Below, piece after piece: positions 2,257 to 53,997 of a stretch of DNA of 63,146 nt. Below the pieces are notes generated by a model. The model did not search any database. It had not been told where the DNA came from and saw only the letters and a program-made list of their open reading frames with translations. The stretch comes from Thermoflexus hugenholtzii JAD2 (GTDB lineage Bacteria > Chloroflexota > UBA11872 > UBA12225). Numbering within the stretch: position 1 is the stretch's first letter; each line of letters opens with the position of its first letter. Location of the stretch: NCBI GenBank assembly GCA_945865725.1, contig CAMBEO010000005.1:1-63146 (forward strand), given 5' to 3'. The position numbers and the translations under genes were made by a program.

Positions 2257-4038
2257 ATGATCGGGGCGATGGCCACGCGTGCAATGCGCCGGACCCCGGG
2301 TGACGGGCCGTCCTGCGCCGCGCGGCGGGCCGTCGTCGCCATCTTGCTCGCGTTCGTCGCGATCGCGGCGACGGTCGGCCCATCGTTCGCCCAAGGGGTG
2401 CCAGCGACCCGGTTCGACGGATGGGAGGACTGGGAGACCCTCAACGGCGCCTTTTTCACCCAAGGGGTGGCAGGCGACGACCCGACGCAGGGCTTCGCCG
2501 TGACCGACGAGGGCGGGAAGGCGTTCTGGCGCGATTACACCGCACTTGGCGGTCGCCGATCGCTTGGCGCTCCGATCTCCCGGCGGTTCGAGGCCGATGG
2601 CTTCGTGGTGCAGGTGATGCAGCGCGCGGTGATGCAGTGGCACCCCGAGATCGGCGGGGCGGTCCTGGCGAACGTGTTCGACGACCTCTCGGCGGCGGGA
2701 CGCAACGAGTGGTTGCGTACGACGCGCGGAATCCCGCCACCGCTGGAGCTGCCCGAGGACGAGGGTGCGACGGCGCAGGACCTTTGGCAACGCCGCTTGC
2801 GGTGGCTGGACGGTTACCCGGCGCTACGCGCCGCCTACTTGAACGACGCGGACCCCCTCGAGGCGAGCGGCCTGCCGATGGCGCCCGTCTTCGACAACGG
2901 GCAAGCCCTCGTCCTGCGCACGCAGCGGCGGGTGTTCATGCAGTGGAAGGTGACGGCCCGGTTCGTCAGGGCCGGGCAAGTCTCGCTGGTGAACGGCGGC
3001 GAGGTCGCCCGCCAGGCCGGCATCTACCCGGAAGAGGCGTTCGCTCCAGACGATGCCGCTCGTCACGTCGCGGTGCCGCTGCGTCACGGACCGAGCGCGA
3101 CCGAGGCGACGGTAGACGCATGGCGCGCGGCGTTCGACCGCGTACGCCCGTCGATCGTCGAGGTCACCGATGGCAAGTCCGGTCGGGGCACGGGCGTCGT
3201 GCTCGGGGTCGATGCCTTGGGCGCGATCATCGTGACAAACAACCACGTCGTCGAGGCGGTCGATCGCGGGCGGCTCGTCGGTCGGCTTGCCGACGGGCGC
3301 GAGGCGCCTGCGGTCGTGGTAGGCAGGGATGATTGGACCGATATCGCCGTCGTGCGCCTGCCAGGGGTGTTTGACGTGCCGGCCCTGACCCGTGGGGCGC
3401 CGGTCGCACCGGGCGTGACCGTCATGGCCGTCGGGTTCGGCGCGCTCTTCCCCTCGATGCCCTCGGCGAAAGTGGGCACGGTGCGCGGCCTTGGCGGTGC
3501 GATCCAGACGTTGCGCGACTACCCGCTATCTGGCCTCATCGAACACGACGTCCTGCTGTCGCCCGGCGACTCGGGCGGACCACTCGTAACCATGGAGGGG
3601 GAGGTCGTCGGCATCGACTGCGCGATCAAGGTGACGCGCGTCCCGAGGCGCGGGCAGGAGATGACGGGGTACTCGATCCCGATCGGGCAGGCGTGGGGGA
3701 TCGCATCGCAGTTGCAGCAGGCGGGCCGCTTGGACCGGCCCGCGCTTGGCGTGGAAATCATCGACCTCGACCCGTTCACCGCGATCTCGCTGGGGTTGCC
3801 GGTCGCGAACGGCGCCCTCGCGCGCGGCGTCCCCGAGGGGGGGCCAGCGGCGATTGCCGGGATCGTGCCCGGGATGGCGATCGTCGGGTTTGATCGAAAG
3901 GCGGTCGCGTCGGTGACCGACCTCCGGCGCCTGATGGTCACGAAGGTGATCGGCGACGTGGTGCAAGTCACGGTCGTCATGCGTGGGGGTGCCCGGCAAA
4001 CCGTGGCCGTGACGTTGGCGGAGCGATCCGGCACTTGA
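2257..4038 (+). CDS. secreted/membrane-anchored HtrA-like S1C serine protease with C-terminal PDZ and an N-terminal LGFP-like repeat region
   Basis: Catalytic triad contexts are TNNHVVEAV (His), DIAVVRL (Asp) and GDSGGPLV (Ser). There is a PDZ-like C-terminus and an N-terminal hydrophobic segment (AVVAILLAFVAIAATVG). Three ATGs within the first 10 codons leave the start ambiguous. Confidence 0.8.
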   Translation: MIGAMATRAMRRTPGDGPSCAARRAVVAILLAFVAIAATVGPSFAQGVPATRFDGWEDWETLNGAFFTQGVAGDDPTQGFAVTDEGGKAFWRDYTALGGRRSLGAPISRRFEADGFVVQVMQRAVMQWHPEIGGAVLANVFDDLSAAGRNEWLRTTRGIPPPLELPEDEGATAQDLWQRRLRWLDGYPALRAAYLNDADPLEASGLPMAPVFDNGQALVLRTQRRVFMQWKVTARFVRAGQVSLVNGGEVARQAGIYPEEAFAPDDAARHVAVPLRHGPSATEATVDAWRAAFDRVRPSIVEVTDGKSGRGTGVVLGVDALGAIIVTNNHVVEAVDRGRLVGRLADGREAPAVVVGRDDWTDIAVVRLPGVFDVPALTRGAPVAPGVTVMAVGFGALFPSMPSAKVGTVRGLGGAIQTLRDYPLSGLIEHDVLLSPGDSGGPLVTMEGEVVGIDCAIKVTRVPRRGQEMTGYSIPIGQAWGIASQLQQAGRLDRPALGVEIIDLDPFTAISLGLPVANGALARGVPEGGPAAIAGIVPGMAIVGFDRKAVASVTDLRRLMVTKVIGDVVQVTVVMRGGARQTVAVTLAERSGT

Positions 4039-4121
4039 CCGTTTTATCGGAGCACTTGCGGTGGGACACTCATCGGAGGGCGGTGGGACCCGCGGGTTAC
4101 CATGAGGAAAAGGACGCCCAG

Positions 4122-4700
4122 ATGACGATCACGACCCTCCTGCAGGGCGCCGGCGAACAGAAGCGCGGGCGCCGTGCAGGCCTTGCCTTGCTTGGCGGGA
4201 TCTCGCTCGCCGCATGCGACGCCTCCAGCATGGGTACCGGGAACGCCACGCCAGTCCCGTTCCCGTCGCCGGTCGCGACGACCCGGGTGGCAACGATCGA
4301 GCTTGACAAGGGCGGGACCATCCAGATCGCCCTCTTCGGCAGCGACGCGAGCCAGACGGTGAAGAACTTCGAGACCAAGGCGACCCAGGGCTTCTACAAC
4401 GGATTGAAGTTCCACCGCGTTGAAGACTGGGTCGTGCAGGGCGGGGATCCGAGCGGCAACGGCACCGGTGGGGGCCAGATGCCGAGCGAGTACAACAAGC
4501 GCGAGTTCAAGGTTGGTTCGGTCGGGATCGCGCGCGGCCAGGACCCGCGCATCAACAACGACGCGCAGTTCTTCATCGTCAAGAGGGACTCGCCCCACTT
4601 GAACGGCAACTACACGAACTTTGGGCAGGTCACGTCCGGCCTCGAGCTAGTCGTCAAGATCGCGATCGGCGACAAGATCAAGAAGATCAGCGTGGCGTGA
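4122..4700 (+). CDS. cyclophilin-type peptidyl-prolyl cis-trans isomerase, probable lipoprotein
   Basis: FHRVEDWVVQGGDPSGNGTGGG cyclophilin core. Lipobox LAAC in LALLGGISLAACD. Start set at the ATG at 4122, preceded by AGGAAAAGGA; the ORF track begins at 4035. Confidence 0.88.
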   Translation: MTITTLLQGAGEQKRGRRAGLALLGGISLAACDASSMGTGNATPVPFPSPVATTRVATIELDKGGTIQIALFGSDASQTVKNFETKATQGFYNGLKFHRVEDWVVQGGDPSGNGTGGGQMPSEYNKREFKVGSVGIARGQDPRINNDAQFFIVKRDSPHLNGNYTNFGQVTSGLELVVKIAIGDKIKKISVA

Positions 4701-4725
4701 GGCGCGCGGCGCCGGGCCGACGAAG

Positions 4726-6321
4726 ATGACGATCGACGCGCCACGCACGACCGCCGGGGGCTTGCCCCTCGAGCCGTGGTACGTCGGCCCGGACGAGTCG
4801 GGCGAACGCCCCGGCGAGTACCCGTTCACGCGTGGCGTGCATCCCACGATGTATCGCGGCCGGACCTGGACGATGCGCCAATACGCCGGCTACGCGACCG
4901 CCGAGGAGTCGAACCGGCGCTACCGGTTCCTCCTGGACGGCGGACAGACTGGCCTGTCGGTCGCCTTCGACCTGCCCACGCAACTGGGGCTTGACCCCGA
5001 CGACCCACTCGCCGAGGGTGAGGTGGGGCGCGTGGGGGTGAGCATCGCGAGTGTCGAGGACATGGCCGCCCTCTTCGAGGGCATCCCGATCGACCGCGTC
5101 TCGGTGTCGATGACGATCAACGCGACGGCAGCGATCCTCCTTGCGTACCACGTGGCGGTCGCGATCGAACGCGGGATCGATCCGGGCTTGCTGTCCGGGA
5201 CGATCCAGAACGACATCTTGAAGGAGTACGTGGCGCGAGGCACCCAGGCCTATCCGCCGCGGCCAAGCCTCGGGCTTGTCACGGGCACGATCGCGTACGC
5301 GGCGCGCCACCTGCCCCGGTGGAACCCGATCAGCATTTCCGGCTACCACCTGCGCGAGGCGGGTGCGACGGCGGTGCAGGAGGTGGCGTTCACGCTCGCG
5401 AACGGCCTCGAGTACGCCCGTGCGGCCGTGGCGGCCGGCCTGGTGATCGACGACTTCGCGCCCCGCCTGAGCTTCTTTTTCGCGTGCCACAACGACTTTT
5501 TCGAGGAAATCGCGAAGTTTCGCGCGGCGCGCCGCCTTTGGGCGGGCCTGATGCGTGATCGCCTCGGGGCGACGCGACCGGAATCGTGGAAGTTGCGGTT
5601 CCACACGCAGACGGCCGGGAGCGCCCTGGCGGCACAGGAGGCGCCGAACAACGTCGTGCGCGTCGCGATCCAGGCGATGGCGGCCGTCCTCGGGGGCACC
5701 CAAAGCTTGCACTGCAATGCCATGGATGAGGCCCTTGCCCTGCCCACGGAGGCGACCGCGCGCCTCGCCCTGCGCACGCAACAGGTGATCGCCTACGAGA
5801 GCGGGGTCACCGGTGTCGCGGACCCGCTCGGCGGGTCGTGGTTCGTCGAGAAGTTGACGGACGACCTGGCCGGGGCGGCGGCGCGCCTGATCGACGAGGT
5901 CGAGCGGGTCGGCGGTGCGTTGCGCGCGGTTGAGACGGGCTATTACGCGCGCCAGATCGAGGAGAGCGCGTACCGGCACCAGCAGGCGGTCGATGCAGGC
6001 ACGCGCACGATCGTGGGCGTCAACCGCTTCGTGTCAGGCGACGAGGGGTCGGGCGTGCCTGACCTGATGCGCGTCGACGCTTCGGTCGGCGCCAGGCAGT
6101 CTGGGCGGCTGGCCCGGTTGCGGGCGACCCGCGACGCGCGCCGCGTCGCGGCCTGCCTCGAGGTAGTCCGCGAGGCGGCGCGCGCGTCGATCGAGGCCCC
6201 GGGAACCCCGCGCATGATGGAGGCACTCGTCGAGGGTGCGCTCGCCCGCGCGACGACCGGTGAACTCGCGGGAGCGATGCGCGACGTCTTCGGGTCATAC
6301 CGTGACGGTGGTGCCGGATGA
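4726..6321 (+). CDS. methylmalonyl-CoA mutase family, large (catalytic TIM-barrel) subunit without a B12-binding domain
   Basis: YPFTRGVHPTMYRGRTWTMRQYAGY, TIQNDILKEY and HTQTAGSALAAQE are typical acyl-CoA mutase motifs. At 531 aa the protein ends before any B12-binding domain. Confidence 0.9.
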   Translation: MTIDAPRTTAGGLPLEPWYVGPDESGERPGEYPFTRGVHPTMYRGRTWTMRQYAGYATAEESNRRYRFLLDGGQTGLSVAFDLPTQLGLDPDDPLAEGEVGRVGVSIASVEDMAALFEGIPIDRVSVSMTINATAAILLAYHVAVAIERGIDPGLLSGTIQNDILKEYVARGTQAYPPRPSLGLVTGTIAYAARHLPRWNPISISGYHLREAGATAVQEVAFTLANGLEYARAAVAAGLVIDDFAPRLSFFFACHNDFFEEIAKFRAARRLWAGLMRDRLGATRPESWKLRFHTQTAGSALAAQEAPNNVVRVAIQAMAAVLGGTQSLHCNAMDEALALPTEATARLALRTQQVIAYESGVTGVADPLGGSWFVEKLTDDLAGAAARLIDEVERVGGALRAVETGYYARQIEESAYRHQQAVDAGTRTIVGVNRFVSGDEGSGVPDLMRVDASVGARQSGRLARLRATRDARRVAACLEVVREAARASIEAPGTPRMMEALVEGALARATTGELAGAMRDVFGSYRDGGAG

Positions 6322-6327
6322 GGCGCC

Positions 6328-6439
6328 CTAGCTACCGATTGCGCTGGCATCCAGCCACCCAGTGCGCGCCGGTATCGCCCTTAACGGCACGTCGTCCGTC
6401 AACTAGCTACCGATTGCGCTGGCATCCAGCCACCCAGTG
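6328..6439 (+). repeat. perfect 37-bp direct repeat (6328-6364 and 6403-6439) separated by a unique 38-bp spacer
   Basis: CTAGCTACCGATTGCGCTGGCATCCAGCCACCCAGTG occurs twice. It contains the internal hairpin GCTGG-CAT-CCAGC. Lies between the mutase stop and the epimerase::MeaB start. Confidence 0.95.
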
Positions 6440-6478
6440 GGGGCGTTGGGTCGGCCTCGCCGGTTCCGGGCGACCGAC

Positions 6479-7963
6479 GTGATCCTCGGGATCGACCACG
6501 TCGGGATCGCGGTCGGCGATGCCACGGCCGCGGTCGACCTCCTTGCCGACCTCGTCGATCGGCCGGGGACCGAAATCGAGGAGGTCGGTGGCCAGGCGGT
6601 TCGCGTCGCGTTCGTGCCGGCGAACTGGCCCACGGTTGGCGCGCGCCTTGAGGTGCTCTCCCCGACGGACCCGTCGGGAGCGGTCGCACGATTTCTCGAA
6701 CGCCGGGGCGAAGGCCTCCATCACGTCTGCTTCCTGGTCGACAACCTCGAGGCCGAGGTCGCGCGCCTCGCACCGCGCTTTGCCTTGGTCGATGCGGCGC
6801 CCCGTCGGGGCCATGGCGGGCGCGTCGTGTTCCTTCACCCGAAAGCCGTGCACGGGGTCATGGTCGAGCTGCTCGAACGCGACGAGCCGCCGGTGGAGGA
6901 CCCTCATCATCCGCATGCGCGCCCCCCAGCTGAAAGCTCTCACGGGAGGAGGGGGGGAGAAGGGGAGGCGGACCTCGCCCGGGCGCGCGACTTGATCGAA
7001 CGGGCGAGGGGTGGTGACCGTCGTGCCCTCGCGCGCGCCCTCTCGGCGGTCGAGGCCGGCGGTGCGCCGGGGTGCGCCGTCGTCGCCGCGGCGGCCGGGA
7101 TACGCGCCGCAACCGCCTCGGTTGTCGGCATCACCGGTGCCCCGGGTTCGGGGAAGTCAACCCTCGTCGGCGCCCTCGCCCGTGCGTGGCGCGCGGCCGA
7201 CCCGGACGGCCCGGTCGCGATCCTTGCCGTCGACCCGAGTAGCCCGGTGAGCGGTGGCGCCTTGCTTGGTGATCGGATCCGGATGGAGTCCATTGCCGGC
7301 GACCCAGGCACGTACGTGCGGAGCGTCGCCGGACGGGGCGCGGGAGACGGCCTCGCTGACGCTGTCGGCGACATGCTCTCGGTGTTGCGGGTGGCGGGGT
7401 TCGGGACCATCCTCCTGGAGACGGTCGGCACGGGCCAGGATGCCTTCGCGGTGGAAAGTCTTGTCGACGTGACGGTGGTCGTGCATGCTCCCGGCCTCGG
7501 TGACGCGATCCAAGGGTTGAAGGCGGGCTTGGTCGACCTGGCCGACGTGATCGTGGTGAACAAGGCCGACCTTGACGGCGCGGCGGCGTTGGCGTCGGCC
7601 CTCAAGTTCGGACGCGGTGATGATCCCGCGTGCCTGGTCCTCGAGACGGTCGCGACGACCGGGGCGGGGGTGTCAGACGTACGCGGGAAGATCATGGAGG
7701 CCCTCGGGCGTCCGCATGACCTTGGTGCACGGGCCCGCCGGGCGATTGCGCGGGCGGCCGTCGCGATGACGCGGGCACGGGTGGCCGAGGCGCTCCGACT
7801 GGACGACCCGACAGGTGGCGCCGTCGCTGGGGTTGTCGCGGGACGCTTGTCACCGGCCGACGCGGCCTGTGCGATCCTGTACGCATCCGGGGCGCGCGGC
7901 GTGTCGGGGCAGGATGCCCCTGCCGGTCCGGGCGCACGAGATGGCGGGGGCCGAGGGCGATGA
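6479..7963 (+). CDS. fusion protein: methylmalonyl-CoA epimerase (VOC/glyoxalase fold) plus MeaB/ArgK-type G3E GTPase (mutase chaperone)
   Basis: N-terminal part: GIDHVGIAVGD, LHHVCFLVDN, VFLHPK. C-terminal part: GITGAPGSGKSTLV (P-loop), GDRIRM, LETVGTGQ, VVNKADL. There is one uninterrupted frame from 6437. The start is probably the GTG at 6479. Confidence 0.8.
   Translation: MILGIDHVGIAVGDATAAVDLLADLVDRPGTEIEEVGGQAVRVAFVPANWPTVGARLEVLSPTDPSGAVARFLERRGEGLHHVCFLVDNLEAEVARLAPRFALVDAAPRRGHGGRVVFLHPKAVHGVMVELLERDEPPVEDPHHPHARPPAESSHGRRGGEGEADLARARDLIERARGGDRRALARALSAVEAGGAPGCAVVAAAAGIRAATASVVGITGAPGSGKSTLVGALARAWRAADPDGPVAILAVDPSSPVSGGALLGDRIRMESIAGDPGTYVRSVAGRGAGDGLADAVGDMLSVLRVAGFGTILLETVGTGQDAFAVESLVDVTVVVHAPGLGDAIQGLKAGLVDLADVIVVNKADLDGAAALASALKFGRGDDPACLVLETVATTGAGVSDVRGKIMEALGRPHDLGARARRAIARAAVAMTRARVAEALRLDDPTGGAVAGVVAGRLSPADAACAILYASGARGVSGQDAPAGPGARDGGGRGR
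6901..6968 (-). repeat. hairpin-repeat module (F/C-type, reverse orientation) embedded in-frame in the epimerase::MeaB ORF
   Basis: CCCTCATCATCCGCATGCGCGCCCCCCAGCTGAAAGCTCTCACGGGAGGAGGGGGGGAGAAGGGGAGG aligns by eye at roughly three-quarters identity to the reverse complement of the intergenic copy at 53900-53960. Confidence 0.75.
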
Positions 7964-8922
7964 GACGAGAACCGGCGCGTCGGCGCCTGTCTCCGGCCAT
8001 GCCTGCCGGCATGATGGTCCCGAAGGCATTCCCCTGGCGACTGGCGCTCAGTGCGTTCGCAGCCGCCTCGGTGCTGCTCTCGATCGTCCTTGCGGTTGCG
8101 GGTAGCGTCGTTCCGTCGGCCGTCCTCGCGATCCTCGGAGTGGCCTTGGCGACCGCGGGAGGCATCGCCACGTGGCGAGCCGGCGAGAGCACCCGCCGGT
8201 CGCGGGCCCGGGCCATTCCCGGGATGTTGGACATGGAGCCCCCGGTGATCGGCCGCGACCGCTCGCGACAGTCACGGGGCACTCGCGACGGCGACGACGG
8301 CGCGGACTTCGACCTGTCTGCCATTCCCGAGTTTCGGACGCGACGCGACGTGGCGCGCCCGCTTTCCGCGCCTGCCCCGGCGCCATTGAATGATCCCGGC
8401 CCCGTAGTGCCCGTGCTTCTGATCCCGGTGCCGGACGGGGCCGAAACGGCGGTCAGTGATTTCGCGGGGGCAGTCGGCGCCATCGCCGCCGCCGTGCTGA
8501 TGCGGCGCGGTCGGCGCCTCGTCCCTGTCGCGGTCGCAGGGAACTGGGCGAACGCGCGTGCCGTCGCGCCTGATCGCGGCGGTCCGCACGGCTCGGGCCC
8601 GCCGGACGAGTCGAACGACGCACCGGGGTTCCCGATCGACGACGCCCTAGACGTCATGCTGGCGGGGATCGCAGGCGCCGTGCCCATCGAGCGATGGGGG
8701 GAGATCGAGGACGTCCCGGCGGGGATGCTTCCCTTGGTCGCGCTTGGCGACCAAGGGGTGGCCGTGGTCGTGGCGACGGCCCACCGGCAACGCCTCCTGG
8801 CATTGTGGGTCGCGTCAAGTCGCGACGGTGCGCGGCGCTACACCGACGTGGAGCTCGCCGCGCTCGAGGCCGTCGCGCGGGATCGTGCACCCGTGCTCGT
8901 GCCTGCGCTCCTCGACGGGTAA
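7960..8922 (+). CDS. hypothetical membrane protein (two N-terminal TM helices; C-terminus weakly GAF-like)
   Basis: The ATG overlaps the MeaB stop (ATGA). TM segments are LALSAFAAASVLLSIVLAVAG and VLAILGVALATAGGIA. I recognise no family, and the GAF-like impression is weak. Confidence 0.55.
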   Translation: MRREPARRRLSPAMPAGMMVPKAFPWRLALSAFAAASVLLSIVLAVAGSVVPSAVLAILGVALATAGGIATWRAGESTRRSRARAIPGMLDMEPPVIGRDRSRQSRGTRDGDDGADFDLSAIPEFRTRRDVARPLSAPAPAPLNDPGPVVPVLLIPVPDGAETAVSDFAGAVGAIAAAVLMRRGRRLVPVAVAGNWANARAVAPDRGGPHGSGPPDESNDAPGFPIDDALDVMLAGIAGAVPIERWGEIEDVPAGMLPLVALGDQGVAVVVATAHRQRLLALWVASSRDGARRYTDVELAALEAVARDRAPVLVPALLDG

Positions 8923-8930
8923 GGAAGCCG

Positions 8931-9030
8931 CCCCCGCCTGAAAACTCCCGTGCCCGGCGGGAGAGGTGGGAGACGGGACGCCCCCTCCCTCAATCCCTCC
9001 CCCGCTGCGGCGGGAGAGGGAAGCACCACC
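8931..9030 (-). repeat. hairpin-repeat mosaic (F-like + A module, reverse orientation)
   Basis: ...CTGAAAACTCCCGTGCCCGGCGGGAGAGG... followed by CCCCCTCCCTCAATCCCTCCCCCGCTGCGGCGGGAGAGGGAAGCACCACC. Confidence 0.9.
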
Positions 9031-9048
9031 GCACGGGGGGCCGGTCCG

Positions 9049-10596
9049 TCAGTGCGCCTGGCCTGCGGCTTGGCGAGGCTGCCAGCGGAGGTCGGGCTGG
9101 CGCGCGGCGCGGACCTCGTCCAGGCGCCCCACGGGCGTCAGGTGGGGCGCCGCGCGCACGATCTCCGGAGTCTCGCGGGCCTCCCGGGCGACCTCGATCA
9201 TCGCGGCGGCGAACTCGTCGAGGGTCTGCTTCGACTCGGTCTCCGTCGGCTCGATCATGATCGCCTCGGGCACGATCAGGGGGAAGTAGATCGTCGGCGG
9301 GTGGTAGCCGTGGTCGATCAAGCGCTTCGCGATGTCGAGGGTGCGCACCCCGTGCTCGCGGAACGGCCGACCATCGAGGACGAACTCGTGCATGCAGATC
9401 CGGTCGACGTAGCACTGGAAGTCGTCGGCGAGGAGGGCCTTGAGGTAGTTGGCGTTCAGGACGGCGTTGGCACCCAGCTCGGCGAGGCCGTCGCTCCCGA
9501 GTTGCAGGATGTAGGCGTACGACCGCAGGACGGCATTGAAGTTGCCGTGGAACCCGTGGACCCGTCCGATAGTGTCGGGGCGGTCGGCATCGAACGCGTA
9601 GGTGCCATCGGGATGGCGGGTGACCACCGGCGCGGGGAGGAACGGTTCGAGCGAGGCGGCGACGCAGATGGCGCCGCCACCGGGGCCACCGCCGCCGTGC
9701 GGCACCGCGAAGGTCTTGTGCAGGTTGACGTGGAGGAGGTCGACGCCCACGTCGCCGGGGCGCAGGTTGCCGACGAGGGCATTGAGGTTGGCGCCGTCGC
9801 AGTAGACGAGGCAACCGACCTCGTGTGCCAGGCGGCAGATCTCCTCGATGCGTCGCTCGAACAGTCCGAGCGTGTTCGGCAACGTGATCATGATCGCCGC
9901 GCAGTCGTCGTCAAGCTTCGCGCGGAAGTCGTCGAAGTCGAGTTCGCCGGTCGTGCGGTCGTGCCCGATGGTGATGGCCTCGTAGCCGGCCATGGCCGCC
10001 GTCGCCGGATTCGTGCCGTGGGCCGAGTCGGGGATCAGGACCTTCCGACGTGCGCGCCCGGCCTTCAGGTGGGCCGCGCGGGCCATGAGGATGCCGGTCA
10101 GTTCGCCGTGGGCACCCGCGACGGGTTGGGTCGACACGCCGGGCAGGCCGGTGATCTCGGCAAGTTGCGCCTGGATGTGGTGGATGACGTGGAGGGCGCC
10201 CTGGATGGTCGACTCGGGTTGGAGGGGGTGGAGGTTTCGGAAGCCGGAGAGGGCGGCGATCGTCTCGTCGATCTTCGGGTTGTACTTCATCGTGCACGAG
10301 CCGAGGGGGTAGAACTCGCTCTCGATCGAGTAGTTGCGCTTCGAGAGGCGGGTGAAGTGGCGCACCACGTCGAGCTCGCTCAACTCGGGCAGCGGCAAGT
10401 CTCGTCGTCGTTCGGCCAAGGGAATGATGTCGTCGAGGTCGACTGCCGGCACGTCGAGGGCCGGCAACGACCCGGCGCGCCGCCCGGGAACGCTGCGATC
10501 AAAGACGGTCGGCACGGCGGCCTGGCGCCCGGAGAAGATGCTGGTCCCCCTCGCGGGCGAGTGGCCGGTCTCGGCCGGCCGGTCGGTCGTGGTCAT
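9049..10596 (-). CDS. gcvPB: glycine dehydrogenase (decarboxylating) subunit 2
   Basis: YPLGSCTMKYNPK and NLHKTFAVPHGGGGPG (PLP-lysine region). Start set at the ATG at 10596 (MTTTDRP); the longer ORF would overlap gcvPA. Confidence 0.9.
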   Translation of the reverse strand: MTTTDRPAETGHSPARGTSIFSGRQAAVPTVFDRSVPGRRAGSLPALDVPAVDLDDIIPLAERRRDLPLPELSELDVVRHFTRLSKRNYSIESEFYPLGSCTMKYNPKIDETIAALSGFRNLHPLQPESTIQGALHVIHHIQAQLAEITGLPGVSTQPVAGAHGELTGILMARAAHLKAGRARRKVLIPDSAHGTNPATAAMAGYEAITIGHDRTTGELDFDDFRAKLDDDCAAIMITLPNTLGLFERRIEEICRLAHEVGCLVYCDGANLNALVGNLRPGDVGVDLLHVNLHKTFAVPHGGGGPGGGAICVAASLEPFLPAPVVTRHPDGTYAFDADRPDTIGRVHGFHGNFNAVLRSYAYILQLGSDGLAELGANAVLNANYLKALLADDFQCYVDRICMHEFVLDGRPFREHGVRTLDIAKRLIDHGYHPPTIYFPLIVPEAIMIEPTETESKQTLDEFAAAMIEVAREARETPEIVRAAPHLTPVGRLDEVRAARQPDLRWQPRQAAGQAH

Positions 10597-10664
10597 CGTG
10601 TCGGTTCCCCAGGCGTGTCCGGAAATGTGCGCGTGGCAGGAGGCGGGATGCGCTTGGCGGAGTG

Positions 10665-12017
10665 TCATAGGGTCCGCAGGACGCGCACGAGGCGGTCGAT
10701 GTCGGCTCGGGACGTCACCTCCGTGCAACACAGGAGGAGCGCGTCGGCGAGGTCGGGCGAGTACTGGCCGAGGTCAAAGCCGCCGACGATGCCCTCGGCG
10801 AGCAGGGCGCGGTTCACGTCGGCGGCCGGGCGCGGGCACCGTATCGGCACCTCGTACAACCACGGCGCGGTTGGCAGGACGGCGTAGCCTGGCAAGCGGC
10901 CGATTTCCGTGGCGAGGTATCGCGCCTTGGCGATGGACTGCCCGGCGACCTCCCGCAGGCCCTGGGGCCCGAGTTGGCACAGGTAGATGGTCGTCGCGAG
11001 GGCGATAAGGGCCTCCGCCGTGCAGATGTTCGAGGTGGCCTTCTCGCGCCGGATGTGCTGTTCGCGGGTCGCCAAGGTCAGGACGTACCCCGGGCGCCCG
11101 TCGCCGTCGACGGTCGCGCCGACGATGCGCCCGGGCATCTGCCGGACGTAGTCGCGGCGGCAAGCGAACATGCCGACGAGGGGGCCGCCGAAGTCCACCG
11201 GACCGCCGGTCCACTTGCCCTCGGCGGTGACGATCCCGGCGCCGTACTCGCCCGGGGAACGCAGGACGGCGAGGGAGACCGGGTCGGCGACGACGACAAG
11301 GATCCCACCAGTAGTGGCGAGCGCGGCGGCGAGGCCGTCAACCTGTTCCATCCACCCGAGGAAGTTCGGCTGCTGGACGATCAGGCAGGCGACCGAGCCG
11401 TCGATCCACGGCGTGAAGTCGGTCACGCGTGACAGGGTGCCGTCGCCTTCGCGGCGCCATGCCGGGACCGTGACGACCTCGATCCCGGGACCGGACGTGT
11501 ACGTGGCGAGGACGTCCCGGTAGCTGGGGTTGACGGTGTCGAGGACGAGGACCCGATGGCGGCGGGTCAGCGCGCATGCCATGCGCGCCGCCTCGCCGAC
11601 GCCGGTGCCGGCGTCGTAGACCGAGGCGTTCGACACGTCCATGCCCGTGAGCGCGCAGACGATCGACTGCCATTCGTAGATGGCCTGCAGGGTGCCTTGC
11701 GAGACCTCGGGCTGGTACGGCGTGTACGACGTCAGGAACTCGGCCCGGGAGACGAGGTGGCCGATGGCGGCCGGCGCGTAGTGGCGGTAGGCGCCGGCGC
11801 CGAGGAACGACGGGTGGCGGTCGAGGTCGAGGTTCGTCTCCGAGAGGGCGCGCAGGGACTGCCATGCCTCCATCTCGCTCAGGCCAGGTGGCAAGTCGAG
11901 GGTGGGCCGGTAGTGCTTGGCGGGCAGGTCACGGAACAGGTCGTCAAGCGTGGCGACGCCGATGCGCGCGAGCATCGCCTGCTGTTCGGCGGGGGTCGTC
12001 GAGATGAAGCCGCTCAC
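10665..12017 (-). CDS. gcvPA: glycine dehydrogenase (decarboxylating) subunit 1
   Basis: FLGAGAYRHYAPAAI and TPYQPEVSQGTLQ. The GTG at 12017 is preceded by GGAGG with a 6-nt spacer. N-terminus VSGFISTTPAEQQAMLARIGV. Confidence 0.9.
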   Translation of the reverse strand: MSGFISTTPAEQQAMLARIGVATLDDLFRDLPAKHYRPTLDLPPGLSEMEAWQSLRALSETNLDLDRHPSFLGAGAYRHYAPAAIGHLVSRAEFLTSYTPYQPEVSQGTLQAIYEWQSIVCALTGMDVSNASVYDAGTGVGEAARMACALTRRHRVLVLDTVNPSYRDVLATYTSGPGIEVVTVPAWRREGDGTLSRVTDFTPWIDGSVACLIVQQPNFLGWMEQVDGLAAALATTGGILVVVADPVSLAVLRSPGEYGAGIVTAEGKWTGGPVDFGGPLVGMFACRRDYVRQMPGRIVGATVDGDGRPGYVLTLATREQHIRREKATSNICTAEALIALATTIYLCQLGPQGLREVAGQSIAKARYLATEIGRLPGYAVLPTAPWLYEVPIRCPRPAADVNRALLAEGIVGGFDLGQYSPDLADALLLCCTEVTSRADIDRLVRVLRTL

Positions 12018-12036
12018 GCCATGCCTCCGGGGAGTG

Positions 12037-12136
12037 GGGTGGTGCGGGAAGGTCCGCGGGCGTCCATTACCGACCCCGCGTTGGGGAATCGGGTCGTTCG
12101 GGAAGGGCCGTGGGCGTCCTTGCCCGTTCCGGTGGG
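12037..12136 (+). repeat. two D-type modules in the gcvH-gcvPA spacer
   Basis: GGTGGTGCGGGAAGGTCCGCGGGCGTCC and GGGAAGGGCCGTGGGCGTCCTTGCCCGTTCCGG resemble the D core GGTCCGCGGGCATCCYTGCCCGCC. Confidence 0.7.
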
Positions 12137-12225
12137 AACGGTCTGCGGCCAACCTGGCCCGAGTCCCGCCGCCCGGATCGTACCGGGCAGGAGACTGACC
12201 GGGGCGCTACAGGCGCGCGCCGGCC

Positions 12226-12603
12226 TCAGTGCAGGGTGGCCAGGAAGGCGTCGTAGGAGCCGGCATCGATCAGGTCCCCCGTGCTACCGGTAACACGCAC
12301 CTTGATCATCCACCCGTCGCCGTAGGGGTCGGTGTTCACGAGGTCAGGTGTGGTCGCGAGCAGGCCGTTCACCGCGACAACCTCGCCGTCGCAGGGTGCG
12401 TAGAGGTCGGACGCCGCCTTGACGGACTCGACGACGCCGAACGACCTGCCGGCGGTGATTGTCGAGCCGATGGCCGGCAACTCGACGAAGACGACGTCGC
12501 CGAGGGCGTCTTGCGCGTGGTGGGTGATCCCGATGACCGCGACCGTGCCCGCGTCGCGGAGCCACTCGTGCTCTTTCGTGTACTGGAGGTCGCTCGGGTT
12601 CAC
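12226..12603 (-). CDS. gcvH: glycine cleavage system H protein
   Basis: YTKEHEWL and VESVKAASDLYAP (lipoyl-lysine motif). I prefer the GTG at 12603 (VNPSDLQYT). The alternative start is the GTG at 12669, abutting the gcvT stop. Confidence 0.85.
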   Translation of the reverse strand: MNPSDLQYTKEHEWLRDAGTVAVIGITHHAQDALGDVVFVELPAIGSTITAGRSFGVVESVKAASDLYAPCDGEVVAVNGLLATTPDLVNTDPYGDGWMIKVRVTGSTGDLIDAGSYDAFLATLH

Positions 12604-12665
12604 GTCTCGGGTCCTCGCTCGGGGTGGCGCGCCGGCATCGATCCAGACACCGTCGCCGGCATCCG

Positions 12666-13859
12666 TCACCGGTCAGGAGAGCTGGTCGGTGCAGGGCGCC
12701 GCGTCGTCGGACGCTTGTAGAAGGGCAACGGGACGACGACGGCCGCGTGTGCCCGACCGCGGATCTCGATGGCGAGGGCAGTGCCTGGCGACGCCATCGC
12801 CGCCGGGACGAGCGCCATCGCGATCGACTTCTTCAGGGTTGGTGACGGTCCGCCACTGGTCGTCTCGCCAACGCGGGCGCCGGTCGGATCGAGCACGGGG
12901 TACCCGGCGCGGGGCACGCCGGCGACGGTTAGCTCGAGACCGACGAGGGCGCGGGCGCGCCCGGCGGCGGCGACTAGTGCCAAGGCGTCCCGCCCGACGA
13001 ACGTGCCCTTGTCGAGGCGTACGAGACGTTCGAGATTGGCCTCGAACAGGTTCACGTCGCGAGTCAACTCGTGGCCGTAGAGGGCCATGCCGGCCTCGAG
13101 GCGGAGGGTGTCGCGCGCGCCGAGGCCACACGGCATGACGCCCGCGCTGGCACCAGCCTCGAGGAGGGCTTCCCAGATGCCGACCGCCGCCGTCGACGGG
13201 ACCGACACCTCATAGCCGCGCTCGCCGGTGTAGCCGGTCCGGGCGACGAGGCCCGGCGTTCCGGAGATGGTTGCCGGAAGGGCGCGGTAGTACCCGAGGG
13301 CGGTCAGGTCGGTATCGGCGATGCGTTGGAGGACCTCGAGTGATCGAGGCCCCTGGACCGCAACCAGCGTGCGCGCGTCCCCATGGGAGACCAGGTCGAT
13401 ACCGGCAGGGTCGATGCCGTGGTCGGGGTTGGCGAGGCACGCGCGCATCCAAGCGACGTCGGCGTCCGCGTTCGCGGCGTTGACGATGAGCAGGAAGCGG
13501 TCGTCGCCAAGCCGGTAGATGATGATGTCGTCGATGGTGCCGCCGTCAGGAGCGCAGAGGAGCGAATACTGCGCCTGCCCGAGCTCAAGGCGTGACACGT
13601 CAGTGGGGACGAGCCACTGGAGCCAGGCAAGGGCGCCGGGGCCAGCGACGTCGACCTGGCCCATGTGGCCGATGTCGAAGAGGCCGACGCCGGCCCGAAC
13701 CGCGTGGTGCTCGGTCAGGACGCCGGTGGCGTACTGGACCGGCATGTCCCATCCGCCGAACGGGACCATCCGGGCACCGTGGGCGACGTGCCATCCATGC
13801 AAGGGCGTGCGGCGCAGGGTCTCGCCAGCGGCGAGGCCGCCCGCATCAGGGCCGTTCAT
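12666..13859 (-). CDS. gcvT: aminomethyltransferase (glycine cleavage T protein)
   Basis: MVPFGGWDMPVQY, GLFDIGHMG, ARTGYTGERGYE. Start is the ATG at 13859 (MNGPDAGG). The 817-aa ORF in the track is an upstream read-through artefact. Confidence 0.9.
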   Translation of the reverse strand: MNGPDAGGLAAGETLRRTPLHGWHVAHGARMVPFGGWDMPVQYATGVLTEHHAVRAGVGLFDIGHMGQVDVAGPGALAWLQWLVPTDVSRLELGQAQYSLLCAPDGGTIDDIIIYRLGDDRFLLIVNAANADADVAWMRACLANPDHGIDPAGIDLVSHGDARTLVAVQGPRSLEVLQRIADTDLTALGYYRALPATISGTPGLVARTGYTGERGYEVSVPSTAAVGIWEALLEAGASAGVMPCGLGARDTLRLEAGMALYGHELTRDVNLFEANLERLVRLDKGTFVGRDALALVAAAGRARALVGLELTVAGVPRAGYPVLDPTGARVGETTSGGPSPTLKKSIAMALVPAAMASPGTALAIEIRGRAHAAVVVPLPFYKRPTTRRPAPTSSPDR

Positions 13860-13937
13860 CGTCAAACGATGATACGAGACCTCGTCAAGCCCGCACCGGG
13901 TACCTTGGCGGCCAGTCGGCTCGGCATACTTCCGTCC

Positions 13938-14852
13938 ATGCCAACCGGTTCCGTCCCCCCGCGTCGCGTGCGTTTCCTGGCCCTGGACATCGACGGCACG
14001 ACGATCCGCGACGACGGCACGGTGTCGACGGCGGTGATCGACGCGGTCGGGCGGGCGCGGCGGGCGGGTGTCCATGTCGTGCTTTGCACGGGCCGTCCCT
14101 ACCACGTCGGCGTGGGCGGCATTGCCGCGGCCCTGCGCCTCACGGACGACACGGCGCCCGGGGCGATTCCGCAGGCAATCGTGAACAACGGGAGCGCCTC
14201 GATCAGCCTGATCGAGGGGGCGGTGCGATGGGAGCGCCTCGTGCCGGCGATGCATGGGCGCGCGATCGTCGAGGCGATCGAGTCGGTCGGCGCGACGCCT
14301 CTCGTCGAACAGGCCCCGTCCGACGGTCCCCGGATGTTCACGTGGGACACCCGGGACGCACACTCGGCCGCCCGCTGGTACGCGCATGCGTGGATGCGGA
14401 TCGACGACGTCGAGCCGGTGGGCCGTGACACCCTGCTGAGGACGGCCGACCGTGCGACGTGGATTGGCGCGTGCGGAGACCATGACACCACGAAGCGCGC
14501 GCTTGACCGATTGAGTCGGTTCGCGGCGGGCCCGGATCCGGTGGACCTCGTGTGGAGTGCCTCGTGGCTGCACGCCACCGCGCCAAACCATGTCGTCGGC
14601 GTGCGACCGGCCGGGGTTCACAAGGCGTACGGCCTTGCGCGGTACGCCGCCGAGTTCGGGGCCACCCTCGAGGATGGCGTCGCGGTCGGTGACGAGATGA
14701 ACGACTTGGAAATGGTGTGCGACGTCGGCCTCGGCATCGCGATGGGCCAGGCGCCCCGTGCGCTCAAGGCGGTCGCCCGGGCGATCGTCGCCTCCAACGA
14801 GGACGACGGCGTCGTCGAGGCGATCGAACGGTTTGTCCTGCCTTACGCCTGA
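13938..14852 (+). CDS. Cof-type HAD-IIB family hydrolase/phosphatase
   Basis: LALDIDGTT (DxDGT nucleophile motif), VVLCTGRP, GDEMNDLEM. Start is the ATG at 13938, in frame within ORF 13665..14852. Confidence 0.8.
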   Translation: MPTGSVPPRRVRFLALDIDGTTIRDDGTVSTAVIDAVGRARRAGVHVVLCTGRPYHVGVGGIAAALRLTDDTAPGAIPQAIVNNGSASISLIEGAVRWERLVPAMHGRAIVEAIESVGATPLVEQAPSDGPRMFTWDTRDAHSAARWYAHAWMRIDDVEPVGRDTLLRTADRATWIGACGDHDTTKRALDRLSRFAAGPDPVDLVWSASWLHATAPNHVVGVRPAGVHKAYGLARYAAEFGATLEDGVAVGDEMNDLEMVCDVGLGIAMGQAPRALKAVARAIVASNEDDGVVEAIERFVLPYA

Positions 14853-14887
14853 CGGGTCACCGGGCGGCTGACAGGCCGTCAGGGCGA

Positions 14888-16252
14888 CTACAGTCGCGCG
14901 TACCCGGTCAGTTCCACGTAGCCCCGGCCGACGAATCCGCCGGTCACGGAGTCCTGCAGGCGCACGGCCCCCTCCCAGTAAGTGACCCCGGTGCTGTGGG
15001 TCGTCACGAGTTCCTGGTCGCGCAGGACGGGGACCCACTCGGCATCGATGCGGTGCTGCGGCAGGGAGACCCGCCACCCGGACGGGTACCGGACCCCCGA
15101 GCGAGGGCTCGTCCACCAACCTGTCGGTTCGATTCGGAACGCCCCGGGATCGAGGTGGGTCGCGTCGCCGTTCGGTGCGGTGAGCGTGCCGTGGCTCTGG
15201 ACGACGCGTCCCGTCTCGTCACGCACCACCGAGATCGTGAGGTCGCGCCCATCGGCGAGGTGGGCGGAGAACCAGTCCCACCCGCCCCCGCCGAGGACGA
15301 GGAAGTCGCCCCACTGGTGGTCCATCCAGGCGGTGCCGCGGACGGGAGCCTCGCGGCTGCCGATGCCCAAGGTGCCGGTACTGGCCATGCGCGTCCGCGA
15401 GTAGTAGTAGGAGTACCCGGCGGGGCCGAAGGAGATCAGGCCAGGGGTGCCTGGCGGGTCGCCGTCGTGCAGGGTGGGGGGACGCCCGGCGACAAGCGAG
15501 AGGTCGAACCGGTAGCCCTCCCCGGCTGCCCACAGGCGGTCGCTTCCCTCATGCCCGCGCATGCGCCACCCCCCCATTGACAGGTCGAAGCCGCCGGTGT
15601 CGGGTCCTAGGGAGACGACGCCGCCCGGCCGATCAGTCGGGGCGAACGCTAGGGCGGGCATCGTGCGACTGGTGACCGCCCCGGCCGGCGGGCGCGGGTC
15701 GGCGTCCGGGAGGGCACCGTGCCTCGTCGCGGGGGTCGGGGCCTCCCGGAGGGCGACTTCGACCCGTTCGTCATACGTGAAGGTCCCCCCGTCCACGTCG
15801 GTCAACGCGAGATGGGCCGCGTAGCCGGGGGGACGGTTCCCGCGGATCCCGCGGAAGAAGACGAACTCGAAGCCAAAGGCGCGTTCGCCCGGGCGCAGGT
15901 GGTCGGCGGTGGCGGGCGGCTCCCGGCGGTCGGTCTCGTCGACCAGTACGGTCGCCTGAGCCTCGCGGGCACCCGTCACCGGGAAGGCGTCGCGCGGGGC
16001 GTAGAGGTGGCCGGTGTAGTACCACCATTCGGCAAGGGCGTCGTGAGGGCCCTCGTCGCGGGGCAGGCGTACCGGCGGAAGCGTTCGTGCCGAGGGGTCA
16101 GGCACGCGCGGGACCGGGATCGCCTGCTGCGACCGCACATCGTCACTCCCTGAGGGAAGGCAGGCGGCGAGGCCCGGTGCACCCAGGGCGGCAAACAGGC
16201 GCCGCCGCGCCAGGCGGAAGGCAAGGCGTCGTCCCACGGCCGAGGGGATCAT
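14888..16252 (-). CDS. AttH/CrtC-like (lipocalin-fold, COG5621-type) secreted lipoprotein
   Basis: EWWYYTGHL, YSYYYSRTRM, AWMDHQWGDF. Signal peptide plus lipobox (GLAACL). The ATG at 16252 overlaps the MMPL stop (ATGA); an alternative GTG lies at 16258. Confidence 0.75.
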   Translation of the reverse strand: MIPSAVGRRLAFRLARRRLFAALGAPGLAACLPSGSDDVRSQQAIPVPRVPDPSARTLPPVRLPRDEGPHDALAEWWYYTGHLYAPRDAFPVTGAREAQATVLVDETDRREPPATADHLRPGERAFGFEFVFFRGIRGNRPPGYAAHLALTDVDGGTFTYDERVEVALREAPTPATRHGALPDADPRPPAGAVTSRTMPALAFAPTDRPGGVVSLGPDTGGFDLSMGGWRMRGHEGSDRLWAAGEGYRFDLSLVAGRPPTLHDGDPPGTPGLISFGPAGYSYYYSRTRMASTGTLGIGSREAPVRGTAWMDHQWGDFLVLGGGGWDWFSAHLADGRDLTISVVRDETGRVVQSHGTLTAPNGDATHLDPGAFRIEPTGWWTSPRSGVRYPSGWRVSLPQHRIDAEWVPVLRDQELVTTHSTGVTYWEGAVRLQDSVTGGFVGRGYVELTGYARL

Positions 16253-18621: not shown

Positions 18622-18970
18622 ACGGGAGCGGAGGTGCGGGCACGGGAGCGGAGGTGCGGGCGGGGTGGTGCTTCCCTCTCCCGCCGCAGCGGGGGAGGGA
18701 CTGAGGGTGGGACTTGTTAGCGGTATATCAGGCGCATCATATACCGGCCTCTCCCGCCGCAGCGGGGGAGGGACTGAGGGTGGGGGCGTCTCCCCCTCTC
18801 CCGCCGCCTTCACTGGGAGCGTTCCCCTCCGCGTCCCGCCGGCCGTCATTCCCTCTCCCGCCGCAGCGTTGAGGCGCTTGCGGCAGATGGAGGGGGCAGC
18901 GCTTCCCCCTCCCGCCGCAGCGTTGAGGCGCTTGCGGCAGATGGAGGGGGTCGTCTCCTCGCCCCGGGCC
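18622..18970 (+). repeat. repeat array: 2 x 20-bp tandem, A, AT-rich palindrome island, A, degenerate unit, 2 x B-variant
   Basis: ACGGGAGCGGAGGTGCGGGC x2; A modules at 18664 and 18748; GGTATAT-N10-ATATACC at 18721-18744; CCCTCTCCCGCCGCAGCGTTGAGGCGCTTGCGGCAGATGGAGGGGG x2 (57-bp period). Confidence 0.9.
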
Positions 18971-18980
18971 ACGGGCGGCG

Positions 18981-24399: not shown

Positions 24400-24510
24400 C
24401 CCCCACCCTCAGTCCCTCCCCCGCTGCGGCGGGAGAGGGAAGCACCGCCCCCTCCCCCGTTGGTCCGCGGGCATCCCTGCCCGCCGGGGCAGTGGGGAGA
24501 GGGAAGCACC
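24400..24510. repeat. hairpin-repeat mosaic (A module reverse + D module forward)
   Basis: CCCCCACCCTCAGTCCCTCCCCCGCTGCGGCGGGAGAGGGAAGCACC, then CCTCCCCCGTTGGTCCGCGGGCATCCCTGCCCGCCGGGGCAGTGGGGAGAGGGAAGCACC. Confidence 0.9.
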
Positions 24511-33096: not shown

Positions 33097-33098
33097 TG

Positions 33099-33555
33099 CC
33101 CTCTCCCGCCGCAGCGGGGGAGGGATCGCGTACGCGGATAACGATGGTGGGGGTGGTGCTTCCCTCTCCCGCCGCAGCGGGGGAGGGACCGCGTACGCGG
33201 ATAACGATGGTGGGGGTCGTATCGGGGCTGGGGTGGTGCTTCCCTCTCCCGCCGCAGCGGGGGAGGGATCGCGTACGCGGATAACGATGGTGGGGGCGTC
33301 CTGCTTCCCTCTCCCGCCGCAGCGGGGGAGGGACTGAGGGTGGGGGTGGTGCTTCCCTCCCCCGCCGCAGCGGGGGAGGGATCGCGTACGCGGATAACGA
33401 TGGGGGGGGCGTCCTGCTTCCCTCTCCCGCCGCAGCGCGGGGCGCTTGCGGCCAATGCAGGCGGATAACGATGGTGGGGGACGATGGTGGTGCAACCCTC
33501 TCCCGCCGCCGCGTGGGAGTTTTCAACCGCGTACGCGGATAACGATGGTGGGGGC
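33099..33555 (+). repeat. largest repeat array: 7 head-to-tail modules (C, C, C, A, C, B, F/C)
   Basis: Units start at about 33099, 33154, 33233, 33297, 33347, 33410 and 33481. All share one orientation. The array begins 3 nt upstream of the GH3 ATG. Confidence 0.95.
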
Positions 33556-33568
33556 ATCCGCTGTCCGG

Positions 33569-35653: not shown

Positions 35654-35660
35654 CGGCGGG

Positions 35661-53861: not shown

Positions 53862-53898
53862 ACTGGATCAGGCAGGGCACGGCTTGTGATGCGTCGCG

Positions 53899-53962: not shown

Positions 53963-53997
53963 GTCCAGTCCCCCGCTGAACGGAGGAGCAGCACGCC

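Follow-up and report, generated by a model that had tools for sequence, protein, structure and literature searches.

The Chloroflexota contig CAMBEO010000005.1 (63,146 nucleotides at 71% G+C; hereafter the window), whose source is found in lake and freshwater metagenomes, carries an open reading frame (ORF) in which a methylmalonyl-CoA epimerase is joined to MeaB, the chaperone of methylmalonyl-CoA mutase, by a linker that resembles a repeat lying between genes elsewhere in the window. The question raised by this locus is whether the repeat created the fusion or entered a gene that was already fused. The initial annotation favoured the first possibility, a repeat-mediated gene fusion, and named an assembly or frameshift error in a GC-rich hairpin as the alternative. 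The data presented here make it likely that the fusion is old and shared with the relatives that form the subclade of this species, and that in this species alone the linker has been supplied in frame by a copy of a dispersed intergenic repeat, probably without harm.

A repeat copy in the linker of a fused gene

The features that make up the locus are listed below.

6479-7963 (+): epimerase::MeaB fusion gene (ORF list; 494-residue products elsewhere; no indels in the contigs of four public runs)
6491-6880 (+): VOC-fold methylmalonyl-CoA epimerase domain, residues 19-148 of the 508-residue ORF (Glyoxalase_4, TIGR03081, PDB matches, AlphaFold strands and helices over 21-148)
6881-6979 (+): interdomain linker EPPVEDPHHPHARPPAESSHGRRGGEGEADLAR, residues 149-181 (about 33 residues), the sole non-conserved block in the alignment with 16 fused relatives
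6893-6965 (-, opposite to the gene): repeat-derived segment, codons V153-G176, a copy of the composite intergenic module made of a C-rich arm, the GAGAGYTTTCAG loop, a G-rich arm and then CGCGYAYGCGGATRAYGA (alignment, shuffles, profile)
6980-7963 (+): MeaB (G3E P-loop GTPase) domain and C-terminal helices (Pfam, TIGR00750, PDB matches)
4726-6321 (+): gene for the methylmalonyl-CoA mutase large (catalytic) subunit, directly upstream in the same operon (Pfam MM_CoA_mutase, 685.8 bits; TIGR00641 acid_CoA_mut_N, 714.7 bits)

The ORF list, Pfam and NCBIfam agree with the initial annotation on a single fused epimerase-MeaB frame at 6437-7963 (+), open over 508 codons from its longest start, GTG 6437. 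GTG 6479 is probably the true start and would yield 494 residues, because gene calls in four other assemblies give 494-residue products that begin with MILGIDH, of which one is 100% identical. On the 508-residue ORF, Pfam recognises Glyoxalase_4 at residues 20-132 (55.8 bits; cut-off 27) and MeaB (PF03308) at residues 198-445 (185.2 bits; cut-off 23.1). The NCBIfam epimerase model TIGR03081 matches residues 19-147 (94.8 bits, under its cut-off of 114.95) and the MeaB model TIGR00750 residues 193-449 (197.3 bits, under 240.75); NF006958 gives the fusion protein 165.4 bits (cut-off 329). Judged from its sequence, the MeaB part is a divergent member of its family, whose exact function we infer. 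The IcmF model matches the GTPase segment only (138.5 bits versus a cut-off of 1500), the mutase being a separate ORF (4726-6321).

Solved structures support both assignments. The best relatives of the epimerase part are methylmalonyl-CoA epimerases (6xbr, 6e-19; human 3rmu, 6.5e-13; 1jc4, 6e-11), and the MeaB part matches 6cum (1e-45), Methylobacterium extorquens MeaB (2qm7, 3.7e-35) and IcmF (4xc6, 1.2e-34). In all 17 aligned sequences the MeaB motifs GAPGSGKST (234-242, a P-loop of the form GxxGxGKS/T), ETVGTGQ (328-334; switch II) and NKAD (375-378) are invariant. Epimerase residues H21, E72, H95/H96 and E144 are invariant in the clade and align with conserved positions of solved epimerases; in the light of published epimerase structures, they are presumably metal ligands or catalytic residues. 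The site of the catalytic Glu48 of P. shermanii is occupied by Val, as it is in human MCEE (3rmu). A dead epimerase domain, considered in view of this Val in place of the catalytic Glu of the Streptomyces and Propionibacterium enzymes, was rejected: human MCEE and a free-standing Anaerolineae epimerase also have Val, and this is a normal subtype. The pathway context fits an epimerase, as the mutase large subunit gene lies directly 5' and carboxyltransferase and biotin carboxylase genes are found nearby in syntenic relatives. The mutase ORF has no B12-binding domain and is the neighbour of the fusion in all inspected relatives. The propionate-to-succinate operon of this bacterium encodes the epimerase and the mutase chaperone as one polypeptide, which probably works as both, tethered to the mutase.

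The linker is bounded by the conserved sequences ...VELLERD and ...GDRRALARAL. Its peptide DPHHPHARPPAESSHGRRGGEGEA (codons 155-178) is encoded at 6899-6970, within 2 nt of the interval 6901-6968 given initially, and the repeat-derived part covers about 6893-6965. Over 64 nt, positions 6893-6956 are 82.8% identical to the reverse complement of 53967-53905, the alignment having a single 1-nt gap; the resemblance to the 53.9-kb module, first put at about three-quarters, is thus stronger when measured. The alignment takes in the A/T-containing loop and the ATCCGC-palindrome unit, with CTGAAAGCTCTCAC facing CTGAAAACTCTCAC and ATCCGCATGCGCG facing ATCCGCGTACGCG, and the 14-mer CTGAAARCTCTCAC has three matches at up to 2 mismatches in the window versus 0.24 expected. 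With blastn-type scoring, the Smith-Waterman score of the linker against the 53.9-kb module is 76, compared to 17±2.7 (maximum 35) for 5000 dinucleotide shuffles of the linker. When this module was compared with 1911 sliding 99-nt pieces of the window, no non-self piece scored higher than the linker; the other repeat copies reach at most 47.

A sequence-only profile, R1, was built from four intergenic copies, the linker being excluded. Their intergenic placement, and that of the other copies, rests on ORF lists and on the gene calls of L046, a European Nucleotide Archive (ENA) contig from another sample. The four training members are:

53891-53967 (+): closest intergenic copy, between ORFs 52746-53861 and 53998-54690 (R1 55 bits)
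33486-33554 (+): intergenic composite-module copy closing the tandem array 33080-33560 (R1 58 bits)
8924-8977 (-): intergenic loop-bearing half-module just 3' of the gene that follows the fusion (R1 37.7 bits)
35785-35833 (+): intergenic loop-bearing half-module (R1 36.3 bits)

R1 finds 6899-6963 (-) at 32.1 bits (E ~4e-9), its top match outside the training set; gaps between long ORFs hold all its other matches with E <0.01. A second contig, of equal depth to this genome in runs X1-X3, bears another copy with the same CATGCG core variant. Translated in the orientation of the gene, the 53.9-kb copy reads DDPRYPRTRP... in one frame and ...PPAENSHRGRGG in another, and one of its three frames contains a stop. 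The linker peptide DPHHPHAR|PPAESSHGRRGG spans two of these frames because of the 1-nt length difference.

Could a Pro/Gly-rich linker in such a G+C-rich genome resemble the module by chance or composition? C and G runs are present in both, and a relative's linker too shares short matches with the window, CAACGGGGGAGGGGG among them. However, other segments of the same gene score at most 37; among the matched parts are the A/T-rich loop and the GATRAYGA stretches, both uncommon in this genome; and the linkers of relatives, of similar composition, remain at background. With the profile E-value added, the probability of a chance resemblance is negligible. The linker DNA does belong to the intergenic repeat family and is read through in frame with no stop, and the 494/508-codon ORF is intact, as first reported.

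Errors of sequencing or assembly, whether a frameshift, a lost stop codon or a misjoin induced by the repeat, deserved attention here, because the region is GC-rich with seven consecutive G, and assemblies often break at members of this repeat family, L158 ending at ELIERD being an example. However, L046 matches window positions 3566-17963 at 99.5% identity over 14.4 kb with zero gaps, and differs within the fusion gene by 10 single-nucleotide polymorphisms (SNPs) and no indels. Logan contigs from four public lake or freshwater runs of three studies span 6410-8000 without indels in two haplotypes, and these and the ENA MEGAHIT k141 contigs agree except for SNPs. The four protein variants called in different assemblies all have 494 residues, one (NCBI/ENA, 123-kb contig) being identical to that of the window, and both domains lie in one frame as in 15 fused clusters described below. 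A repeat-induced misjoin is not possible because the 73-nt module is shorter than the crossing reads and the k=141 words, and so cannot collapse two loci. The fused ORF is not an assembly error; we regard any form of artefact as practically out of the question, and this alternative of the initial annotation falls.

The structural setting of the repeat copy was modelled with AlphaFold (17-sequence alignment; moderate quality, with a mean predicted local distance difference test score (pLDDT) of 67.5). The model has folded domains. Residues 152-174 have a pLDDT <50 and form the sole such interdomain segment; no secondary structure is predicted at 149-172 and the first MeaB helix starts at residue 173. 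In this model, the repeat copy (codons 153-176) occupies a site predicted to be disordered and permissive, where the sequence would hardly matter.

Age and origin of the fusion

We wondered whether the repeat is older or younger than the fusion. A search of 5.8 billion proteins was used to collect relatives. Its best 120 matches all contain both Pfam domains, so that the epimerase/MeaB architecture, of which the initial annotation knew no example, is a common one. Beyond the cluster at least 99% identical to the window's protein, the nearest matches form 15 Chloroflexota clusters (P0002-P0016) with 46-62% identity over 80-98% of the query; the named members of the clade are proteins of metagenome-assembled genomes (MAGs) that NCBI calls 'VOC family protein'. 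Every one of these 15 clusters is fused in the order VOC-linker-MeaB, with strongly conserved domains and unrelated linkers of ~13 to ~60 residues. The five relatives' loci that were fetched share a neighbourhood of carboxyltransferase (propionyl-CoA carboxylase, PCC), trypsin/PDZ protease, peptidyl-prolyl isomerase (PPIase), mutase, fusion, conserved hypothetical and glycine-cleavage (Gcv) genes.

The linkers of these relatives show no trace of the repeat. BLAST of relatives' linkers against the repeat modules and the window found nothing, and in Smith-Waterman comparisons, against their own loci and against the window, they score like control segments of the same genes. The R1 profile was run on 67 kb from the loci of four relatives and on L151-L158, the fusion-gene loci of eight Chloroflexota MAGs in GTDB, and had no match in either set. 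The MAGs were picked by a degenerate DNA pattern for the clade-specific motif PRRGHGG.V.FLHP; GTDB scans with generic MeaB peptides gave no close orthologue among the matches listed. One of the eight, a Thermoflexus MAG, carries related CGCGTACGCGGATAACGA repeats at other sites, but the linker of its fused gene is ordinary. The repeat-like linker is confined to the cluster at least 99% identical to the window. Because the nearest clusters are fused in the same order, in synteny and with repeat-free linkers, the fusion predates the repeat copy. By these comparisons the fusion is presumably ancestral to the whole subclade of the species, and the repeat linker specific to the species.

Two candidate repeat traces in relatives were tried and dropped, since BLAST, the Smith-Waterman controls and the profile all put them at background: (i) the long linker of P0004 (L065), which by eye has CCATCGTT..CGCG and a C/G hairpin like another module, and (ii) the P0002 linker GGGCGCGCGCTCCGCGGATGCCGAGGG with its 15-nt match to window positions 24448-24462. 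As a separate observation, the assembly of the MAG LaPlata-5m-a_bin-061 broke at the linker of a P0002-type fusion: its contig L158 (positions 1-40) stops exactly at ...ELIERD, immediately ahead of that linker. The same bin holds CGCGTACGCGGATAACGA-repeat contigs at 71% G+C (L050, L051), and the P0002 loci L047 and L048 are repeat-free at 67% G+C; the bin may be mixed.

These results bear directly on the proposal that the repeat, by inserting between two separate genes and removing a stop and a start, made the fusion in this lineage. Its appeal is clear: the repeat sits exactly at the domain junction with no in-frame stop, and some distant clade members have separate genes, one of them (L154) with a spacer that contains repeats, though unrelated to this family. 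Against it, all 15 nearest clusters, including those with identical synteny, are already fused without a trace of the repeat, the repeat-like linker is found in the window's own cluster only, and the genes of unfused relatives overlap by 4-8 nt and could be fused by a small indel. We consider this route very improbable, and the central proposal of the initial annotation is not upheld.

The initial annotation had suggested comparison with orthologous loci, where separate genes might flank the repeat. Separate genes were indeed found, in the distant clade members L153, L154 and L155, whereas close relatives are fused, and the window's repeat family was not found in any of these three loci. The L155 epimerase ends right after ELLQRD, with an overlap of 8 nt between the two genes and GTG as the meaB start. 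That of L153 carries a tail of 40 residues, and its TGA stop shares bases with the ATG of meaB (TGATG); L153 comes from a hybrid assembly, in which a frameshift error is possible. L154 has a TAA stop and then ~250 nt of spacer before meaB. This spacer, from a groundwater Chloroflexota MAG (4480-4735, -), has short tandem repeats of its own (CAGCGGTCAGC-like, with TGTGCATCTG three times) that are unrelated to the window's family. The epimerase/meaB junction appears to be prone to rearrangement.

The MeaB sequences of L153-L155 are 57-63% identical to each other and to those of the fused P0015 and P0016, and 49% identical to that of the window. Fused and unfused states are thus mixed within the subclade of L153-L155, P0015 and P0016, and the window's subclade is uniformly fused. 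In outgroup Chloroflexota, a B12-binding small subunit is encoded between the epimerase and meaB, or beside meaB. Most likely, the fusion arose from adjacent, translationally coupled epimerase and meaB genes, because the more distant clade members keep that arrangement. A small indel at the coupled stop/start overlap would suffice, with no need for a repeat.

Acquisition and fate of the linker copy

We propose that about 73 nt (24 codons) of the ~33-residue linker were supplied by an intergenic module like the repetitive extragenic palindromic sequences (REPs) or miniature inverted-repeat transposable elements (MITEs), in antisense to the gene. Two routes could have brought the copy there: it may have been inserted, with most of the older linker then being lost, or illegitimate recombination or gene conversion may have replaced a patch of that linker. 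The copy would be tolerated because the segment needs no fold, its length keeps the frame and two of the three frames are free of stops in this orientation, so that the module can be translated as a disordered tether rich in Pro, His, Arg, Gly and Glu. The copy may since have behaved as a passive, decaying passenger, with its hairpin potential gone and substitutions accumulating ~8 times faster than in the rest of the gene.

Two sets of observations relate to this presumed decay. First, the 53.9-kb intergenic copy has a 7-bp CCCCCTG/CAGGGGG stem and its RNA fold is slightly better than that of shuffled sequences (z -1.4 and -1.65), whereas the fold of the linker copy, on either strand, is no better than shuffles (z +1.4 and +2.2). 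Second, 3 of the 10 SNPs that separate the haplotypes fall within the 73 nt, a density ~8 times that of the remaining gene sequence (Poisson P ~0.014), and two of the three are nonsynonymous (H157R and G173E). At all three positions the allele of haplotype B (L046) is nearer to the family consensus, this copy scoring 35.8 bits with R1 versus 32.1 bits for that of the window. The three SNPs (6906, 6928 and 6954) are always linked in two haplotypes across four runs and five assemblies. The remaining SNPs of the gene assort otherwise: P0142 has the window's linker together with variants shared with P0144. This linkage hints at recombination or a single conversion tract, and the SNP pattern would fit either a decaying copy in the window or conversion in haplotype B.

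Several points weigh against an old fusion whose linker was later supplied by a passive repeat copy. In the searched collections no relative falls between 62% and 99% identity, so that the state before acquisition is not seen and both insertion with deletion and patch replacement would fit. The linker has 33 residues, like those of the close relatives P0002, P0003, P0005 and P0008 (31-34 residues), and a plain insertion of 24 codons predicts ~55. Three routes could account for this length: most of the old linker may have been lost, the old linker may have been short (that of P0015 has ~13 residues), or a patch may have been replaced by recombination with a repeat copy. The family was surveyed in 63 kb of this genome, a stretch that holds a single intragenic copy. 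Neutrality of the copy is presumed, and gene conversion from another copy would explain the three clustered, linked SNPs equally well. Finally, as both domains score under the NCBIfam equivalog cut-offs, their exact activities are deduced from Pfam, PDB relatives and gene context.

Conversion is central to another scenario, in which the clade's linker began as a repeat long ago and the window's copy was refreshed by gene conversion from intergenic copies. The three linked SNPs within 49 nt, with one haplotype uniformly nearer the family consensus, are in line with it, as are the presence of the CGCGTACGCGGATAACGA core in other Chloroflexota MAGs, including the Thermoflexus MAG that also has the fused gene, and a weak P-x-E pattern common to the aligned linkers. 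However, DNA similarity to the family was detected in no relative's linker, that of the Thermoflexus MAG included; any alignment of Pro/Glu-rich linkers would be expected to show a P-x-E column; and a single recent acquisition is more parsimonious. An ancient, homogenised repeat linker is accordingly hard to credit.

We also asked whether the copy might have been kept for a function, as a protein-binding DNA site, a translation-pausing RNA element or an internal start for MeaB. The G-rich GGGAGGAGGGGGGGAGAAGGGGAGG stretch resembles a Shine-Dalgarno sequence, and the linker has the length seen in relatives. However, the hairpin has not been kept, the segment has a raised substitution rate with two of its three SNPs altering an amino acid, and relatives function without the repeat. 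An internal start for a separate MeaB was rejected, as the nearest in-frame start after GGAGG (6964-6968) is TTG 6992, 23 nt off and too far. Exaptation of the copy is unlikely, though less so than its ancient origin.

A broader reading is that the family colonises coding sequence in a free-living, high-G+C bacterium in the manner of the Rickettsia palindromic elements (RPEs), its copies repeatedly entering or overwriting disordered segments, perhaps by gene conversion. This is hinted at because the three clustered linker SNPs of haplotype B run towards the consensus; we hold it to be doubtful, if somewhat less so than a conserved function. Were it true, the fusion linker would be one visible case of repeats that supply and renew interdomain tethers. 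The reading that we retain remains that of an old fusion with a recent, probably harmless repeat copy in its linker.

Surroundings, comparable systems and significance

The window is rich in modular repeats within the gaps between ORFs, often as tandem mosaics. Mosaic arrays occupy 33080-33560, 37258-37444, 18669-18972 and 35650-35835; their modules include the hairpin CTTCCCTCTCCCGCCGCAGCGGGGGAGGGA, the unit CGCGTACGCGGATAACGATGGTGGGGG and a 66-nt unit present 2.8 times. At 62872-63146, an 18-nt tandem repeat, GCGGAGGAGGCCCGTCTC, is present in 15.3 copies at 89% identity and runs past the end of the window; its period of 6 codons suggests a repetitive protein segment. Related CGCGTACGCGGATAACGA cores occur in other Chloroflexota MAGs, among them the Thermoflexus MAG. 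An Rfam search of the whole window found no known RNA family, and a scan of JGI metagenome contigs with GTGAGAGYTTTCAGCNGGGGG for further copies or intermediate strains gave one match only, in an unrelated coding region.

The gap of 157 nt between the mutase stop (6321) and the fusion start (6479) contains two exact copies of the 37-mer CTAGCTACCGATTGCGCTGGCATCCAGCCACCCAGTG (6328-6439), 75 nt apart. This 37-mer is found nowhere else in the window, and in relatives the mutase-fusion gap is ~13 nt or the genes overlap. Its copy number may vary, because Logan contigs break and loop there (joint 6439->6400). Downstream, a conserved hypothetical gene of 320 residues (7960-8922, +) has no Pfam match and by eye an N-terminal hydrophobic stretch; its ATG overlaps the fusion stop (ATGA). 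A counterpart of 263-348 residues, or of 166 residues in L068 and L069, follows the fusion in inspected relatives, and the gene may be a functional member of the operon. No small-subunit gene adjoins the mutase large subunit in this clade. In other Chloroflexota (L009, L001), a B12-binding subunit of ~137 residues is encoded between the epimerase and meaB or just 5' of meaB, and loss or relocation of this gene may have brought the epimerase and meaB together.

Fusions of the same two domains are known from other bacteria. The six low-coverage matches that were sampled (Acidobacteria and others) all have the reverse order, MeaB-VOC, and one is named 'LAO/AO transport system ATPase/methylmalonyl-CoA epimerase' by JGI. 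A 2017 preprint on peatland Acidobacteria counts 'MeaB + Mce' among bifunctional fusion genes (10.1101/197269). As in the window, both domains belong to the methylmalonyl-CoA pathway and share one polypeptide, and the architecture is widespread in databases; however, MeaB comes first there, whereas the epimerase comes first in the window's clade, which is restricted to Chloroflexota. The reversed order thus points to an independent fusion event. In IcmF, a MeaB-type G3E GTPase is likewise fused to an enzyme of acyl-CoA mutase metabolism, and its GTPase matches that of the window at 1e-34. The partner in IcmF is the mutase itself (isobutyryl-CoA mutase), whereas the window has the epimerase in that place and encodes the mutase large subunit in a gene of its own upstream.

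For the repeat, the closest parallel is provided by the RPEs, which lie in frame inside functional protein genes (Ogata et al. 2000; PMC1779305, PMC3733652). In both cases a member of a dispersed, mostly intergenic family is read in frame without a stop at a permissive site, and orthologues lack it. In contrast, RPEs are A+T-rich elements of 100-150 bp in reduced intracellular genomes, whereas the present copy is ~73 nt long, very G+C-rich and carried by a free-living Chloroflexota bacterium; it replaces rather than lengthens the linker, it is the one intragenic copy in 63 kb, and there is no sequence relationship. REPs with GTAG/CGTC tags are mobilised by RAYT transposases. As described by Di Nocera et al. 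(2013, PMC3733652), their stems of 8-9 bp start with A/T pairs, their loops have 4-5 nt, and a CCA tail accompanies the terminal GTAG or CGTC tag. Like the modules of the window, intragenic REPs belong to families of short, G+C-rich stem-loops that are mostly intergenic, form mosaic clusters and are occasionally found within ORFs for known proteins (PMC3733652). The modules differ in their C-run/G-run arms, the 13-nt GAGAGYTTTCAG loop of this subtype and the attached CGCGTACGCGGATAACGA unit. By inspection they do not fit the GTAG/CGTC architecture (PMC3733652), although CGTC occurs in their connectors (GGGGGCGTCC). By analogy with these systems, the in-frame repeat in the linker is a known type of event and probably harmless.

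At a practical level, the 494/508-residue ORF should be annotated as a real bifunctional gene, since the name 'VOC family protein' hides the MeaB chaperone, and repeat-like sequence within a gene need not mean misassembly. The repeat-derived linker raises no new question on its own. It adds a further case of an intergenic repeat translated within a working protein, in a new phylum, with a base composition opposite to that of Rickettsia and at the cheapest site available, a disordered linker. As to the pathway, fusions of the epimerase with MeaB exist in either order, and one Chloroflexota clade contains fused as well as separate genes. Because such fusions occur in both orders and side by side with unfused genes, these data suggest that the epimerase works physically near the mutase-chaperone complex.

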